Program-made: the position numbers and the translations under genes
Notes under the pieces: generated by a model
Databases searched by the model: none
What the model saw: the letters and a program-made list of their open reading frames with translations, nothing else
Told to the model about the DNA's origin: nothing
In this document: positions 33,658-42,937 of the stretch, one piece after another
Layout of the letters: each line of letters starts with the position of its first letter
Position numbering within the stretch: position 1 is the stretch's first letter
Assembly (NCBI GenBank): GCA_047459655.1
Contig: JAJREF010000003.1
Location: 128,001 to 192,000, forward strand
DNA: 64,000 bases
Direction of reading: 5' to 3'
Origin: Rhabdochlamydiaceae bacterium
GTDB lineage: Bacteria; Chlamydiota; Chlamydiia; Chlamydiales; Rhabdochlamydiaceae

Positions 33658-35103
33658 TTAATGCGTTCTTTGTAGCTTTTCAGGAGGCTCTCCAGATGTA
33701 TTATTTTTAGTGGTATATACATGTATAACACTTTCATGATCGACCAAATGAAGAGTATCTCCTTCAGTTGGCCTGGGGATTTCTATTTCTGTTTGTGTAC
33801 CATTCGTCGATTTGACCCTTAACCAGTAACGGTCTCTAGTAGGGAAGTAAAGGCGAGAGCGAAAAAATCGATCTGTTATTCTTACAACAGATGTTAAGCT
33901 CCTTTCTGTATGTTGAGCGTTACTTGTGTAAAATTGAAACGTGTTTTCATGTTTACCAAAATGTGGGGAGAGATTAACAAAAACAATACCTTGAAATATC
34001 GGATTATTTAAGAGTTCAGAGGCAGATAGACGAGATTCGGGGTATTTTAGCATTTCCAAAAGAAATTTTGCTATTTGGGAAAGCCTTTCCTCAGAAAATT
34101 CAAGGTTGTTTGCTCCTGCTAGCAGCCGTTCGTGTAAATTACCTTCTTCCAAATATACAGATGCCATAGCTTTGTAAGCAGTTTCTATAGCACTTTCGAT
34201 GGCTGGGTCTTGTTTAGCTTCCTTCTTCCAACTTTCCCATGTCTCAAGATTGCCAAAATATTTGTTATATTCATCTTCAATTCTTTCCCATTCTTCTACA
34301 TCAACGGCTCTAAGGGGGGGTTTAAAGCTCACTTCCCCATTCTCAATTTTGAACAGTTCCTTTGCTGGTCCTTGACAAGTTTTTAAAAATATCTCAGAAG
34401 GCATCCCAATAAGCTTGCAAATCTGATGGAGGCGTTGTGCATCTCGGATTAGAGCATGTTCCATTAACCGAGGAGAGCAAGCAGGAAACAGGGGTTCTTT
34501 TAATATAACTTCAAATAAAAGAGCCGCACTACTCCATATGTCTGATTTTGTGCCAACAGGGCTTTTTAGAATAACTTCTGGGGCTCTATATTCTGGAGCT
34601 TGACACATGTTGTAGGGTTCTCCAACTTTGCCTACACTATTAAAATCTATGACTGTTAAATCATCCGATCCTTCTGGCGCTGGCCGAAAGATCAGGTTAT
34701 CTAGCTTTAGATCTCCATGAAAATAATCTCTTTTGTGTAGTGCTTCCAAACAATCTAAAAGCTGACGTGCAATTAATGCCCAATGGTATGAAGAGAGAGT
34801 GTAAGAGGGGTTGTTCAGTAATGTTACAAGGTCTCCACCGGGGATTCTGTCTGTTACAAATCCTCTTTCAAATTCTTTTCTAAACCGAGGGATGTTTGGA
34901 ACTCCAAATGTATTAAATAAATCTAAAAGACGGGCTTCTGTAGAGATAGTGTTGAGGTGTCGAGTGTGGGCTCTTTTAATGGCAACAGGTGATCCTGTTG
35001 TTAAATCTATGGCTCCAAAGACTTCTCCATAGGCTCCCCTTCCAAGCGTGTCAGTTATTTGGTAAGTTGTTCAGATGTCCCTATTTGGCGATGATGGTTC
35101 CAT
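33658..35103 (-). CDS. Eukaryote-like protein kinase (CMGC/DYRK-like); in-frame TGA at codon 11
   Basis: Manual extension gives LGRGAYGEV and VAIK, in frame with HGDLKLDN, IDFN, QAPEYRAPEV, DIWS. AGAGGA RBS precedes the ATG at 35103. Confidence 0.85.
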
Positions 35104-35241: not shown

Positions 35242-35404
35242 TAGACCTCTTCGAAATTCTAATGCTCTTGGATTTGAGTTCTTTTTTCGCTAGTTGGAAG
35301 ATCGATTTGTGGGTCATATTGGGTTAATATGACCCACAAATCGATCTTCCAACTAGCGGAAAATAATCTCAAATACAGGCCATTAGAATTTCGAAAGAGG
35401 TCTA
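35242..35404. repeat. Long palindromic element (family A), 163 bp
   Basis: Termini TAGACCTCTT...AAGAGGTCTA. Perfect 33-bp central stem (35288-35320 / 35326-35358) with a 5-nt loop. Confidence 0.92.
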
Positions 35405-35490
35405 ATAGTCCTCAGGACAAGTCATTTGCCGATAGTGCGTGAAAGCTAATTGGGAAAGCACCTATTGAGAGGTCTCTTGATAGGCAAAAA

Positions 35491-36855
35491 CTATTTTACT
35501 GTTACAGGAATTAAAGAAGCAATCGCTTGAGATTGTAAAAAGCGCATGCGGAGCCAGTAAAGGACAAGGCTGCTAAAATGCATGATACTAAGAACTGTCC
35601 AGAAGAGGTCAGCTTGTATAGCGACTTTATTCATCATAAAATACATGAACAAAAAGCCGTTGATCCAGCCTATAAAGCCCATGAAAAGTGAAAATTTAGT
35701 GTCTTTAAAGGCTAGTATGTAGCTGATCGGGAGGTAACCAAAAGTAAAGAATGTAAAAGAGAGCCAAATCCCGGTAAATATTTTTTGAATATTCATGCTG
35801 CCAACGTCGATAGTAGGAAACAACCAATTGAAGGTTACATGAGGAAAGCAAAGCAAGGGAATCCCTACAATAACGATCATGATAGAGGCAAGCAAGGCTC
35901 CTGAGCGTAAAGCTTTACTTAAATAAGAAAACTTTTGAGCGCCAAGGATTTGAGACACGACAGTTGTCTGTGCTTGACAAAGCGAATCTCCTAAAAAGGA
36001 AGAAAAAGAAATAGAGTACCACCGATAGAAAGGCTTAAAAGATAATCGCTGGATTTTCCTGAAGCAAGCCTTGCAATGAATACCCAGCAGATAAAGTTTA
36101 AAATCCGATTCGCAGCTCTTAAAAGGCCTGGCTGAATGCAGTGCCAAAATAACTTGAGCTGAAGCAACCAGCGATGAGAGTCAAATAAGTTGCGATTTTT
36201 TTTGGAAAGAAATGTAATGAGCAAAAAAAGACAGAAGCCCCCTTGTGCAATAAGAGTGCTAAGAACACCACCTGTTAAACCTAGACTAGGGATCCATCCC
36301 CCCATCCAAATATAAGCAAATAAGCAAATAACAGCTTAACAAGTTGTGAAGATATAGTTGCGATTACAATAAGTAGTGTTTTCCCTTGCCCTAAGTAAAA
36401 GCATGATAAGGCTGCACCTAAAGGATATAGAAAATTAATAGCCATTAGAAAACGAGCGTAAGGAACACCCACTCCGCTAAGAGCTGTATCGCGAAAATAC
36501 AAATCACTACAGATCCACCCTATAGGAAAGACGATACACATCGATAGAATAGAAAACCAAATGAACTGCCAAATACCGGGCCCAACAGACTTGTAGTTCT
36601 GTGCTCCAATCCATCTCCCCACGTATACCTGCGCCATCATAGCAAGGGCCACGCAAGGAGCTTGGAATATTTGAGCAACATACGCTGCATTGACGGCAAC
36701 TTCCATTACTTCCTTAGATATCCGAGCAAGAAAAAGCTTTTCGATCAGCAAAAGAAGATAAGTAGAAAAACTCATAAGCAAGACAGAGAAAAAAGAGCCA
36801 ACAACTCCCCCAGCCTCCCTGTCCGACCCATGATTTGTGGCTGCGCTACATCCAT
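35491..36855 (-). CDS. MATE-family efflux transporter/flippase (frameshifted)
   Basis: About 12 hydrophobic segments. VYVGRWIGA, YLGQGKT, LLIFG.GGWIPSLGLTGG...TLIAQ and VSQILGA match MATE repeats. Confidence 0.85.
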
Positions 36856-36857
36856 TC

Positions 36858-37223
36858 TTAGTTTTGGAAAACTTTCGGATGATTAGCGCCTTTAGCACAG
36901 TGCATGATCAAATGCAATACATCATCGATAGATGCACGCGCAAAAGGTCCGCCAGTATTTCCATTTTCATAGTGCCAGCCTTCTGGGCTCAGAGTGATGA
37001 CAAAAGGTCTATGTTCTATGGTTAGATCTGGGCGAAGAAATGTAACGTAGTAGCTCATTACACTTTCTCCAGCTCTTAGCAGATAGAGATACGGGGTTTT
37101 TCTTCCTCTTAATAACTTTTCTGCGGCTAATCCAGATAGGCTTTCATGCCATGCTGGATGATCGGCTATCTCTTGCTCTATAGAGCTCAAGTAGTGGGTC
37201 TGTTCTTTCAATAAAGTAGACAT
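36858..37223 (-). CDS. Stand-alone SH2-domain-like protein, 121 aa
   Basis: AWHESLSGLAAEKLL / YLYLLRAGES / YYVTF / IEHRPF / F...SIDDVL align in order with the SH2 consensus W.HG.ISR..AE.LL / FLVRES / YSLSV / VKH..I / F.SL.EL. AGGAG RBS. Confidence 0.75.
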   Translation of the reverse strand: MSTLLKEQTHYLSSIEQEIADHPAWHESLSGLAAEKLLRGRKTPYLYLLRAGESVMSYYVTFLRPDLTIEHRPFVITLSPEGWHYENGNTGGPFARASIDDVLHLIMHCAKGANHPKVFQN

Positions 37224-37225
37224 AT

Positions 37226-40200
37226 CTAATACTCCTGTTTTTTTTTGTAACAACTTCTTGCTACGCTAAATAGCCCACAAAAAGATCTGTGAAATATATT
37301 CAAATCTTTTCTTACCAGCGCTTGGGAGGGTTGGTAAAAAATGGGGACAACTGGCATCTCTTGAGATAAGATTCCTTCCGCCTGTAATAGGTAGGAAGAT
37401 CGTTGGAAGGGGTTGACTGCATGATCACTTAAATCGAGGAGATGATGAAAAGACGGGTGTTCCCATTTCGCAAAATTAATTTTTTCACTTGCATATTTAA
37501 AAGCATTGAGCGTGTAGATAGGGTCATCAATCCAAGAGCTCCAGTGTACAAGTGCCATCTGAAAATCTCCATCAGAAAGTTTACTAAAAAGTTCTCCCCA
37601 TATTAGAGACTTAAGGTTACACTCAATGCCGAAGTAGTCCTTGAATTGTTGCTTTAAGTTAAGAGCTGTATATTCTCCAATACCCTTTTGGTAGAAAAGC
37701 AAGTTAATCGGTGGAAAAGTTTGCAGAGATAACCCCAATTCCTCTAGCGCCTCATTAAAAAGTAAGCGGGCTTTTTGTACATCATGAGCTGGAAAAAGAA
37801 CGTGGTTATCAATCGAGTGAGCGTGGTTATCAATCGAGTGAGCAGAAAGAAGAGGGGAATAAGCGGGTATCAAAGGGAGAAAAGAATTAGCAATGATCTC
37901 GGCACGGTTAATGGCAAACGCGAAAGCCTGGCGTAACTTTTTATGGGAAAATAAATGGTGCGTCGTATTAAAAACACACCAGTAGACCAAACTATTGGGA
38001 AAAGAAAGAAGAGTGTCGTCTTTTTCTGCAATATACGATGGATGCCAAGATCCAAAAGGGTTGCCAATCCAATCAATCTCTTTTTCTGAAAAGCTTGTAT
38101 GGCTTGTAGAGGAGTTACACAAGTTATAATAATTTGATCCCATGATGTATAGCGAGGATCCCAGTAAAAAGGATTACGTATTAAGTGATATCCTTGACTA
38201 GGATGATTAATTTTTAATTGGAAAGGACCGTTACATGGGTAGTTTTTTTGTGATTGAAAAGGCCACTGGGGGTGTTCTTGATCTATTAGTCTATGTACAG
38301 GAGAGTAAACAGGGTGTGCTATGAGCTGCAGAAAGTGAAGAGTGGGCCGTGCAAGAACAACTTGTAGTGTCCGATCATCAATAACGCGGATTCCTACTTG
38401 ATCCAAAGGGACCCTTCCTTCTTTTGCTTCTTTCGCATTATGAATAGGGTAAAACCAGTAAGCAAAAGAAGTTTTAAAATCAGGCGAAAGGATTTTTTTC
38501 CATGCATATTCAAAATCGTATGCAGAGATAAGCGATCCATCATTCCACTGGGAATGGCGGAGTTTAAATGTGTATTCCAGCAGATTAGGAGAGATGGTAA
38601 TAACTTCTGCAATAGCATTTTCAACGCTACCGTGCTGGTCAAGCCGTGTAAGACCTTCAAAAAGAAGCCTTAATATGTTTCCCGATCCATCATCTCCCCC
38701 GATGCGGGGATCTAGAAATAGCATCAAATGCTCCAGCCCAATCCTTAGAATTTGCTGACCTTTCATTTTTTGATGCCATTTATGGAGCGCTTCTTGCAAT
38801 GCCTGGATGAAAGCGGCCGTTTCTGTCGTTTGAGAGGATAAAAGAGCGCAGTTAAAGAAGAATCTCTCTTCTATATCGATAGTATTGTATACGATTTCCG
38901 GCAAGCGGAAGATCCCATCTCGAAGCACAGCTGAAATGACATCTCTAATAGAAGGATCTTCTCCATAAACACATAAAAAAATCCCTGCATCTTGTCGGTG
39001 AATTTTAAGAGAGTAGGGGCAATCAGAGGAGATCTGTTCAAAGCGGTTTTCAAGAAAATGAGCAAAAAGGGAAAAAAGCACGTGCTCCGGCATGAAAGCC
39101 TGTTTTTCTAAAGGAACTAATCCGTAAAAAAAAGTTTCCATTAGTTCAGGATCACAGTTTGCCAGGTCTGAGAAATTGTCTTTAAAGTGCTGAAAGAGTT
39201 CTTGTTGCTTGAGGAGAATTCCTCCATTATAATCGCGGAATTCACCAATAGCTGTGACTAGTAAGGAGACAACTTTTTTTCTTGCAGCATAGAAATCCAA
39301 AGAACCGTCTGATCTTAGTAAATTATCTGTACGTAGAAGATGGAGACGGAAAACCTGTCCTTCTACAGGGCGATTTTCAAGGTGCTTAACAGTCATTATA
39401 CGTTCAGAGACAAAAGAACAGTCGAAAAAACGCTCTTTGAGTAAAAAGCGATGGAAGGGTGTTACATATACAAGTGCAATGCGAAAAATAATTTCTTCAC
39501 CCGTCTGCTGATCGAGGGTAATGTAAGCTTGGGGAAGGTCTTGAACGGATTGAATTTCTTGGTTAAGCACGAGAATATTCTTATAAATTTCTTCCTCGTT
39601 GAGACCTCTAAAAACACCAGGGGTCAGAGACTCGATACTCTTTTTGATCTTCTTGCCCAAACTAATTTTGAGTAAATTTTGTTCTTGGAAAGAAAAAACA
39701 GAACCATCTTTTTTCTCAATCTCAAGGTAGAAGAGTTTTAGATTTTTATGTTGACCTGTATGGCAATAAGAGCTCTCTTTAACTACTCTGAACTCAGGGA
39801 GATGCTTTTGCAATGAAAGTTTGATGTTTTCTTCATCGAATAATTCATACCTGCCCATCATATTGCATCCAATGAGGCAGCCCCAAACAGGTTTCGAGAA
39901 AAGGGAAATGACAAATGCGTAGGTATCCATCTGATCTCAATGCGGCGAACGTGAGGAGCGAATGTCACTGTACGAAGTAGTTTCTTTCGTAGGAGGTGGA
40001 CCGATATAACAAGGCGAACAAGGTGGGAAACGTTACGATGATCGAGGAACTCTTTTGTTCCAAGTAAATAGAGAAGGAAGAGATCGTTTAAAATGGTGTT
40101 ATCTACAATAGCTGGAAAACGGTCCAACCATTTTTGTATTTTTTTGTAAACAAGACGAAAGCAAGGATGGAAATCGAGCAAGCATGTGTTGCCTGACATC

Positions 40201-40238
40201 TCCTGGAGAAACCCTTCATCTTGTTGTAGTACGATCAT
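37226..40238 (-). CDS. ~1000-aa fusion: unknown N-terminal region plus family-5 solute-binding (OppA-like) domain, no signal peptide (frameshifts ~39900, ~38090)
   Basis: C-half: LDPR...LFEGLTRL...YTFKLR.SQWNDG...AYDFEYAW, NGPF.L, NPFYW, KLRQAFAFAINR, AE.IL..EMPVVP. The N-half is soluble and unrecognised. Confidence 0.8.
37801..37842. repeat. Perfect 21-bp tandem duplication (AHSIDNH x2)
   Basis: CGTGGTTATCAATCGAGTGAG occurs twice in tandem. Confidence 0.9.
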
Positions 40239-40432: not shown

Positions 40433-41312
40433 CTAGCTTTGTACTAGGATGTCTTGAGGAGGATTTGGTGTGGTCGGAATATTATCTGAAGATGTTGTTG
40501 CGGCTGTGGCGTCACTTGAAGGTTTAGCTAGAGCTAATGTTAGTCTCTCACGGATTCCTGGTTCTTGAGCAAGGCTGGACAGCATTTGCACTATTTGAGT
40601 TAAAGATTGAGTGTTTTCACCTGAGGCAGTCACTTGATCTCCCAATCTCCGCGTTTCTTGAGCTATAAGAGCTCTTAATTCTTCGAGTTGTTTGGTTGTT
40701 TCTTCGAGTTGTTTGGTTGTTTCTTTATGCTTTTTCAGAGTTGCTTTGACATCTTCCCAAAGCTCTCTACTCCCATTGACTGCCGCTACAAATGCTTCCA
40801 CTTGGGGGACAAGCGAGCCTAGCTTTTCTGCAGTAGCTTGGGTGTTGTCTGCCGTTCCAGATATCTGCGTTAGTAAAGGTGTGAGTTTTGAAACTAATTC
40901 ATTAAGATCAGCGTTCGTTTTTTCCAAAGCACGATTGGTTTCTTCAAGCGTTTTAAGTTTGATGTTTTCTTGTGCGAGATAGCGAGCATACAAGAGGATA
41001 GTCAATACAAACATCCTAGCAGTTGCTAAAATAATGATTCCGAAAACAAGGCTGTAGACAACGCATGTCACTTGGTAGGCAATCGCTACCCAAAGAGTGG
41101 GGTTTCTGCGCATATCTGCTAAAATACGTGCCCTTAGGGGGAGAGTCTTCATTAGATGGAGCTGCACTTTTAAATTCGAGCACAGGTTGTGCGGCTTGAA
41201 AGACAAGGTTTGTTTTTGTGCGGGTGAGTAATAGCGCGTTATTTAATAAACCCCTTATTAGGGCAGAAGCTTGGCTTGGTGACACAGATCTTAAGTATCC
41301 TAAAGTATCCAT
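40433..41312 (-). CDS. Inc-like protein: long hydrophobic hairpin plus coiled coil (frameshift near N-terminus)
   Basis: ~38-aa hydrophobic stretch followed by heptad repeats; AGGAG RBS before the ATG at 41312; 21-bp tandem repeat at 40679-40720 (TKQLEE x2). Confidence 0.65.
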
Positions 41313-42304: not shown

Positions 42305-42937
42305 TTATTTGGTGATTGTCCAATGAGCAAGGGCTTTTGCAGCAGCAGGTGTGCTAAATAGCGCAAAGCATACCGCAGCAAATCCTGCGCATACAAGAGC
42401 CGTGCAAGCGTATTGTTTTTTCGTGTCTTTATTACTCCAATAAGCTTTGCCTAATAATCCAAGTCCAAGCGCGGCAATACCTGCTACGCCGACAGGCAGA
42501 GAATACTGGGTGCTGAATGCTAATGCTTTGGCTGGTAGAGAGTTTAATTGATTTTGAAGGGAATCCACTTGTGCATTTGATGCGGTGAGTTGTTCTTGGA
42601 GTTTTGTAATTTTGTCGCCTGTTCGTTTCTCTACATCTTCCTTAACGCTGTCATATAAGTCTTGGGCCTTTGTAGTAATCTCATTTAGTACTGTATGTAT
42701 GTTTCTACGCATTTCATCGCATTCAGCTGTTTTTCCTGCTAATGCAGTCGTGAGTTCATCAACACGTCCTGTCAATTGCCTCCATAGGTCTGAGATTTGT
42801 GCAATAAATGCTCCGACTAACTCATTTACTTTCTCTCTAGAAACGAGTTGAGTAGAGGCATCGGGATTTTCTGAGAGTGAAACTTGGTGTGGGAGTCCCT
42901 TGATACCATCTTGAAAATCGGCAATTAATGTATCCAT
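42305..42937 (-). CDS. Coiled-coil protein with two C-terminal hydrophobic segments (Inc-like)
   Basis: AGGAGA RBS; heptad-rich N-terminal region; two transmembrane segments at the C-terminus. Confidence 0.65.
   Translation of the reverse strand: MDTLIADFQDGIKGLPHQVSLSENPDASTQLVSREKVNELVGAFIAQISDLWRQLTGRVDELTTALAGKTAECDEMRRNIHTVLNEITTKAQDLYDSVKEDVEKRTGDKITKLQEQLTASNAQVDSLQNQLNSLPAKALAFSTQYSLPVGVAGIAALGLGLLGKAYWSNKDTKKQYACTALVCAGFAAVCFALFSTPAAAKALAHWTITK

Follow-up and report, generated by a model that had tools for sequence, protein, structure and literature searches.

An SH2-domain protein encoded between an ACT-like/OppA-like fusion and a MATE transporter in environmental chlamydiae: a probable cytoplasmic adaptor

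The window analysed here is a stretch of 64,000 nucleotides from a Rhabdochlamydiaceae bacterium, and its features of interest are collected in Table 1. The plus strand of the segment occupied by the SH2-domain gene contains many stops. Comparison with an independent contig set, X1, shows the SH2 gene to be identical in both. In the window sequence the stop codon of the upstream fusion gene and the ATG of the SH2 gene are 2 nt apart, as are the SH2 stop codon and the ATG of the MATE gene.

Table 1. Genes, sequence elements and pocket residues at the SH2 locus (nucleotide positions are those of the window).
Feature	Position	Strand	Remarks
SH2-domain gene	36858..37223	minus	121 aa, intact; from ORF calling, Pfam and PDB profiles and predicted fold
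AGGAG ribosome-binding-like site	37232..37236	minus	within the final codons of the upstream gene, 8 nt 5' of the SH2 ATG
Fusion gene, ~1000 aa: N-terminal ACT-like array, C-terminal OppA-like SBP_bac_5	37226..40238	minus	no signal peptide
MATE-family transporter gene	35491..36855	minus	downstream of SH2; breaks near 36788, 36297 and 36000
Protein kinase gene	33658..35103	minus	directly after the MATE gene
Probable dispersed repeat	~35250..35410		between the MATE and kinase genes
Direct duplication, 21 nt	~37800..37842		adds 7 residues to the OppA-like domain of the fusion relative to locus L002
Coiled-coil protein gene	40433..41206	minus	upstream of the cassette; hydrophobic stretches, Inc-like in appearance
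Coiled-coil protein gene	42305..42937	minus	upstream of the cassette; hydrophobic stretches, Inc-like in appearance
Pocket residues of the SH2 protein	G31, R50, G52, E53, H71, P73		alphaA2, betaB5, betaB7, BC1, betaD4 and betaD6, respectively

The two neighbours of the SH2 gene are interrupted in the window. The fusion, which is intact at ~1000 aa in relatives, is read in three pieces (39858-40238, 37870-39930 and 37226-38143), with breaks near 39885 and 38080. Three of the five breaks (38080, 36788 and 36297) fall in single-letter runs and are absent from X1; since nearby housekeeping genes such as pheT are split as well, the three are apparently errors of assembly. X1 does not extend to the fusion's other break, near 39885, and the MATE break near 36000 is present in X1 too, so that this MATE copy may be damaged or the error may be shared. 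Around the three genes, the kinase gene differs from X1 by one base near 34284, which makes the frame of its rear part uncertain; it is not conserved beside the cassette elsewhere and, with no match in 24 loci, was discarded as a cassette partner. The probable repeat was recognized from the several contigs with loose ends that it draws and from its higher depth. The two coiled-coil genes match no Pfam family above the cut-off.

The SH2 domain is a hallmark of eukaryotic tyrosine-kinase signalling. The original prediction, made from the letters of the window, had named a series of SH2 elements at this position, and all of them are found in the minus-strand reading frame: W25, LSGLAAEKLL (residues 29-38), YLLR with R50 followed by AGES, YYVTF, IEH with H71, and SIDDVL. 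By itself the window protein is a weak match to the Pfam SH2 family (E = 0.093; 13.3 bits, with a cut-off of 21) and to PDB sequences, among which SHP-1 comes first (E = 0.15). The Pfam search suggested with the prediction thus falls under the cut-off for the single protein but succeeds for its family: 42 relatives were retrieved, 92-139 aa long and 45-83% identical to it, and with the protein itself included 39 of 43 sequences reach E ≤ 0.1 against PF00017, the best at 1.4e-6. Family profiles match SHP-1 and p85 in PDB searches, and a profile of 136 sequences matches 97 PDB sequences at E ≤ 0.01 (best E = 3.2e-7), of which the best 60 all contain an SH2 domain. The AlphaFold2 model (pLDDT 86.6, pTM 0.79) consists of a single domain with a long N-terminal helix, in which the succession of alphaA, a central antiparallel betaB-betaC-betaD sheet and alphaB can be recognized. 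Foldseek, the other search that had been suggested, returned 130 matches at E ≤ 0.001 (probability 1.00), and those listed are all SH2 proteins; in a second fold search the top match was SOCS1 (Z 10.9, rmsd 3.2, 107 aligned), and all 50 listed matches contain SH2 domains. Atlas placement puts Chlamydiota clusters first and eukaryotic SH2s next. Both the predicted fold and the sequence profiles place the window protein in the SH2 superfamily, and on these two grounds we regard its SH2 identity, as originally claimed, as secure.

Relatives of the protein in named records belong to Chlamydiae, Chlamydiales or Parachlamydiales, apart from some labelled just 'bacterium' and one labelled Verrucomicrobia. 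Profile searches covered 400 genomes of the chlamydial phylum, which are kin to one another, with a profile built chiefly from members of the cassette described below: in its narrow form it matches 76 of the 400 genomes and none of the 29 in family f4, made up of genomes of 1.0-1.2 Mb that we take to be Chlamydiaceae, while a broad profile finds matches in 117 of 400, among them members of other SH2 families and a single weak match in f4. Close matches (short proteins, E ≤ 1e-14) number 99, in 73 of the 400 scored genomes. Record titles, the 42 relatives and the Atlas placement point to a probable restriction of the family to chlamydiae. Relatives were found neither in plasmids nor in viral contigs, and a weak check of 7998 longer candidates revealed no fused form of the cassette SH2. 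Long proteins retrieved in the representative search matched in weak, scattered stretches at profile positions ~45-95 only; they were taken, uninspected, as repeat noise. We found no paper on a chlamydial SH2 protein or on the cassette in the open-access literature.

In the window the SH2 gene occupies the centre of a three-gene cassette conserved among environmental chlamydiae, between the fusion and the MATE transporter. This order was seen on genome contigs in 21 of 24 loci; the other three show, respectively, SH2 and MATE only, fusion and SH2 at a contig end, and a weak partial match elsewhere. The distance from the fusion stop to the SH2 start is between −4 and +9 nt in 16 of 20 loci. The description of the domain as stand-alone therefore suits the protein, which has no other domain, but not the gene. 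Among the 99 close matches, 84 are no more than 4.5 kb away from a listed fusion, and inspection added 5 more (89 of 99); 6 adjoin a MATE gene without a fusion (4 of these at contig ends), and 4 have neither neighbour in view, one being at a contig start and two being located elsewhere, adjacent to genes for opp permeases. Pairs of SH2 and fusion genes are codirectional in 63 cases, divergent in 6 and convergent in 3: the linkage outlasts inversion.

The SH2 gene is dispensable to the cassette. Of 86 fetched fusions, a selected sample partly picked for absence of an SH2 match, 55 are accompanied by both SH2 and MATE, 12 by SH2 only, 9 by MATE only and 10 by neither. In a FastTree phylogeny of the fusion N-terminal half, read without weighing support values, SH2-bearing loci occur on all branches but the basal one, and SH2-less loci are scattered in several places, which suggests that SH2 was lost repeatedly. 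These losses, together with an SH2 tree longer than those of its neighbours (39.4 versus 26-34), would be expected of a passenger, functionally untied to the adjoining genes and carried in a copied and rearranged block. We consider this very improbable, because the gene stays beside the fusion through inversions and at ~25% identity, with key residues kept in at least 90% of sequences, and because few close homologues occur away from both neighbours. Distance correlations over 55 triplets are nearly equal for the N-terminal half (0.848), the SBP domain (0.845) and MATE (0.844), so that this measure singles out no partner.

Several variants of the cassette were encountered. Two or three tandem SH2 genes are present in L002, L019, L078 and L110, and a tandem two-SH2 protein of 209 aa is encoded downstream of one fusion (L103:3834-4463). 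In the SH2-less cassettes L098, L101 and L102 a gene of ~1010 aa is convergent with MATE; Pfam identifies that of L098 as a lantibiotic dehydratase, and those of L101 and L102 resemble it at the N-terminus. In L056-L080 the cassette often has as neighbours ordinary oppA genes that encode a signal, with no permease genes in view, suggesting that the SBP half of the fusion derives from a local oppA.

The C-terminal SBP_bac_5 domain of the fusion is nearest to B. subtilis OppA and DppE. The signal peptide and lipobox of canonical OppA are not features of the fusion: a lipobox is recognized in 2 of 86 fusions versus 25 of 55 neighbouring OppAs, and a hydrophobic N-terminus in 2 of 86 versus 30 of 55; the median of the strongest 19-residue hydropathy in the fusions is 1.43. 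With export signals lacking, the fusion is likely, on its sequence, to be located in the cytoplasm. SgrR-type cytoplasmic sensors offer a parallel, as they likewise carry an SBP_bac_5 domain without a signal peptide; they differ from the fusion, in which no DNA-binding domain was found and an ACT-like array takes its place, and which has SH2 and MATE as neighbours. A special change in the peptide-binding motif of the OppA domain was considered and rejected, since neighbouring chlamydial OppAs diverge in the same way from B. subtilis OppA.

The fusion's N-terminal half matched no Pfam family. In its model (pLDDT 83.1, pTM 0.46) the best match with Foldseek (E = 2.6e-6, TM 0.18) and with VIA-align (Z 8.0, rmsd 3.3, 107 aligned, residues 218-332) is the same N-terminal segment of the 180-kDa glutamate dehydrogenase (GDH), and Atlas leads are also GDH N-terminal domains (0.75-0.86). 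No GDH family appears among the 25 Pfam families listed for the N-terminal half, and hhalign comparison with the GDH sequence of the same genome gave a probability of 0.44, inside the range of 20 controls. With the sequence tests giving no support, the modelled likeness to the GDH ACT* domains is a matter of fold only and sits at the edge of tool noise. In the available text of PMC8175468, the corresponding segment of large GDHs comprises ACT-like and PAS domains proposed to be sensors of metabolites, and GarA acts as an inhibitor of the enzyme.

Of 401 genomes of the phylum, 361 encode the family of this N-terminal half, as do none of 30 in f4; the cassette ties the SH2 protein to this undescribed family of putative sensors. 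A stand-alone paralog of ~655 aa adjoins, in 17 of 19 loci, an aspartokinase gene of ~257 aa without ACT domains; these neighbours were called by their N-terminal motif, and three were confirmed by family scans. In those 17 the paralog gene directly follows the catalytic-only aspartokinase gene; the paralog loci include G000:C1:536746-539264 (L134) and L115-L133, and a branched-chain amino-acid transporter gene, one of which was confirmed, is often near. An SH2 gene is beside the paralog in none of the 19 loci. The paralog is possibly the regulatory subunit of a split aspartokinase, and its neighbourhood with aspartokinase and amino-acid transporter genes would point to amino-acid sensing in the cell.

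The phosphate pocket of the SH2 protein is incomplete by comparison with characterised SH2s, which, in the available text of PMC7530234 and PMC6208348, complement the basic residue of betaB5 with one more at alphaA2 or betaD6. The window protein has the betaB5 Arg and lacks a second basic residue in either the Src-like (alphaA2) or the SAP-like (betaD6) position. The glycine that had been noticed in place of the alphaA2 Arg is indeed there: in HMM alignments G31 falls at alphaA2. At betaD6 and betaB7 the residues are Pro73 and Gly52, neither basic nor hydroxyl-bearing; the register for betaD6 and alphaA2 derives from HMM alignments to SHP-1 and RasGAP rather than from model coordinates, and the alignment to p85 opens a 2-residue gap close to betaD6, where the residue that could take its place, V75, is likewise non-basic. 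In a set of 178 SH2 sequences with some near-duplicates, 176 retain H71, 175 W25, 163 R50, 157 G52 and 137 E53; a K or R is found once at alphaA2 and 8 times at betaD6, and an S or T 7 times at betaB7. The Arg described as invariant is thus present in the window but not throughout the family: it was lost in at least two separate clades in which the SH2 gene persists. Next to fusions shorter than 1060 aa, the subfamily of the window, Arg50 is found in 35 of 37 SH2s and alphaA2 Gly in 33 of 37; next to longer fusions the Arg is found in 16 of 35, a few of these 35 sequences being perhaps misaligned. E53 occurs in 135 of 163 Arg-positive versus 2 of 15 Arg-negative sequences, a pattern that would fit an Arg50-Glu53 pair, with few independent events underneath it. 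At ~25% identity, H71, W25, H22, L38, R50 and N87 are kept in at least 90% of sequences. Conservation is also seen near the two termini, at H22 (160 of 178), H108 (142), C109 (153) and position 114, a Cys in 105 and an Asn in the window protein; a metal site or disulfide is possible at these His and Cys residues.

The position of the SH2 gene, between a signal-less sensor-like gene and a transporter gene, makes it likely that the protein works inside the bacterium rather than being injected. Our preferred reading, to which we assign a probability of about 0.6, is that it serves a sensor-transporter module as an adaptor in the cytoplasm and is not an effector that reads host phosphotyrosine. 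The fusion would sense amino acids or peptides through its ACT-like array and OppA-like domain, and the SH2 protein, as an optional adaptor, would link the signal-less fusion to MATE by docking on one of them or on both. Arg50, in the subfamily of the window, would hold a single anionic group of the partner, which could be the side chain of an acidic residue or a phosphorylation made by the bacterium, and would not bind a host pTyr peptide with high affinity; docking would then tune transport.

The retention of Arg50 beside the ~1000-aa fusions counts against this reading, as it fits a real phosphate ligand. The original prediction had taken the protein for a reader of phosphotyrosine or another phospho-ligand, which the Arg at betaB5 allows, and which the absence of a basic betaD6 residue and of the betaB7 hydroxyl, and the loss of the Arg in some clades, make doubtful. 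A true phospho-reader could operate in the same place as the adaptor and differ from it in its ligand, with Arg50 binding either a phosphorylated residue in one of the two neighbour proteins or a phosphorylated small metabolite, in a kinase-gated switch. R50, G52, E53 and H71 are invariant among the 43 close relatives, SHP-1 likewise has Gly at alphaA2, and the genome, which also has a type III export-gate gene, encodes 8 protein kinases above the cut-off, so that phosphorylation and secretion are both possible. Tyr666 of the fusion is present in 0.96 of Arg-positive versus 0.30 of Arg-negative loci, but the change is mostly Tyr to Phe and is confounded by kinship, and no column of the fusion cleanly provides a Tyr that tracks the Arg. 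Since in addition no kinase accompanies the cassette in the inspected loci, and no BY-kinase was found above the cut-off in this genome (82% complete), we judge a kinase-gated switch unlikely.

Secretion through a type III system, for reading or masking host pTyr as Legionella SH2s do, would reduce the operon to mere co-regulation. The obligate intracellular lineage, the export-gate gene, a variable N-terminal extension of ~20 residues and the local expansion of SH2 copy number in four cassettes are in line with it, and the available text of PMC6208348 describes known bacterial SH2s as mostly effectors. That the gene is fixed beside those of a transporter and a sensor of housekeeping type, that the pocket is stripped, and that the N-terminus is helical in the model and ordinary in composition all speak against it; in a crude, unvalidated test, the S/T/P/N content of the N-terminus exceeded the 90th percentile of the genome in 2 of 39 proteins. 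A further argument comes from a chlamydial SH2 family of 250-290 aa outside the cassette, related to the cassette SH2 at a profile probability of 97, in which the Src-type alphaA2 Arg is kept in 5 of 5 inspected loci. An injected cassette SH2 thus appears improbable, and the effector role implied by the original comparison with Legionella finds no support in a gene fixed in an operon-like cassette. With the longer family as reference, the cassette SH2 has probably drifted, as judged from these sequences, from a complete pocket.

Members of this second chlamydial SH2 family, 240-290 aa long with an N-terminal extension and an intact alphaA2 Arg, include G000:C1:157067-157798 (L155) and those of L081-L085; the L082 copy is divergent from a GadC-type antiporter gene, and the L155 copy, that of the window's own genome, is near opp permease genes. 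Elsewhere, a 732-aa protein (L152:232-2430) has three SH2 matches behind a P/N/Q-rich, effector-like N-terminus, and a 401-aa protein (L153:4371-5576) has a C-terminal SH2 match.

With eukaryotic SH2s (PF00017; SHP-1/SHP-2, p85alpha, p120RasGAP, ZAP-70/Syk, PLC-gamma, SOCS) the window protein shares fold and element order, the betaA Trp, alphaA Glu, betaB5 Arg and betaD4 His, and, with the p85 C-SH2, an equally long BC loop. It differs from them in being bacterial and single-domain, in lacking basic residues at alphaA2 and betaD6, in the Gly at betaB7, in the long N-terminal helix and in the location of its gene in an operon-like transporter cassette. The Legionella SH2 effectors (LeSH, RavO, DoSH, LUSH; Kaneko et al. 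2018, PMC6208348) are also bacterial and from an intracellular lineage, and in the available text of that paper they include single-domain proteins and proteins without pTyr binding; they are, however, translocated, and many are superbinders, whereas the window SH2 is tied to a sensor-transporter cassette. LeSH uses a betaD6 Arg and has an EF insert, both absent from the window protein. RavO ranks 37th against the window model (Z 8.5, rmsd 3.2, 95 aligned), no closer than animal SH2s, and no Legionella chain is among the matches listed in the PDB profile searches (best 60 of 97 for the 136-sequence profile); the fold and profile matches listed thus suggest no special closeness of the cassette SH2 to those of Legionella.

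According to the available text of PMC6208348, the 2018 survey of all bacteria found confident SH2s only in Legionellales, plus two unassigned proteins (K2BDF1 and K2EE31) that bind no pTyr peptide. The string 'chlamyd' is absent from its two text supplements, although its figures or bioRxiv supplements might list such proteins, and neither accession occurs in the 10 clusters that were looked up. With the cassette SH2s, bacteria would have a second SH2 family, phylum-wide in its distribution, and its genomic neighbours speak for a function within the bacterial cell. The nearest functional parallel, offered as analogy only, is GarA, which in the available text of PMC8175468 is a small protein with a phospho-reader fold (FHA) that acts on the large GDH of mycobacteria and so regulates an ACT*-bearing enzyme; the reader fold is different here, the interaction is a proposed one, and the fusion has no enzyme domain.

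Tentatively, and with rather less confidence than in the adaptor role itself, we propose that environmental chlamydiae may have built an SH2 domain into a purely bacterial cytoplasmic circuit, in which an ACT/OppA sensor would control MATE through an SH2 adaptor reading an acidic or phosphorylated site on its partner. If true, this would be the first SH2 domain working within a prokaryotic cell, and the SH2 counterpart of the FHA regulator GarA. For the binding proposed here the cassette names two candidate partners, the fusion and MATE. The cassette SH2s also range naturally from a pocket with one conserved Arg to a pocket without it, a series in which the role of an SH2 domain may be tested without a tyrosine-kinase system.
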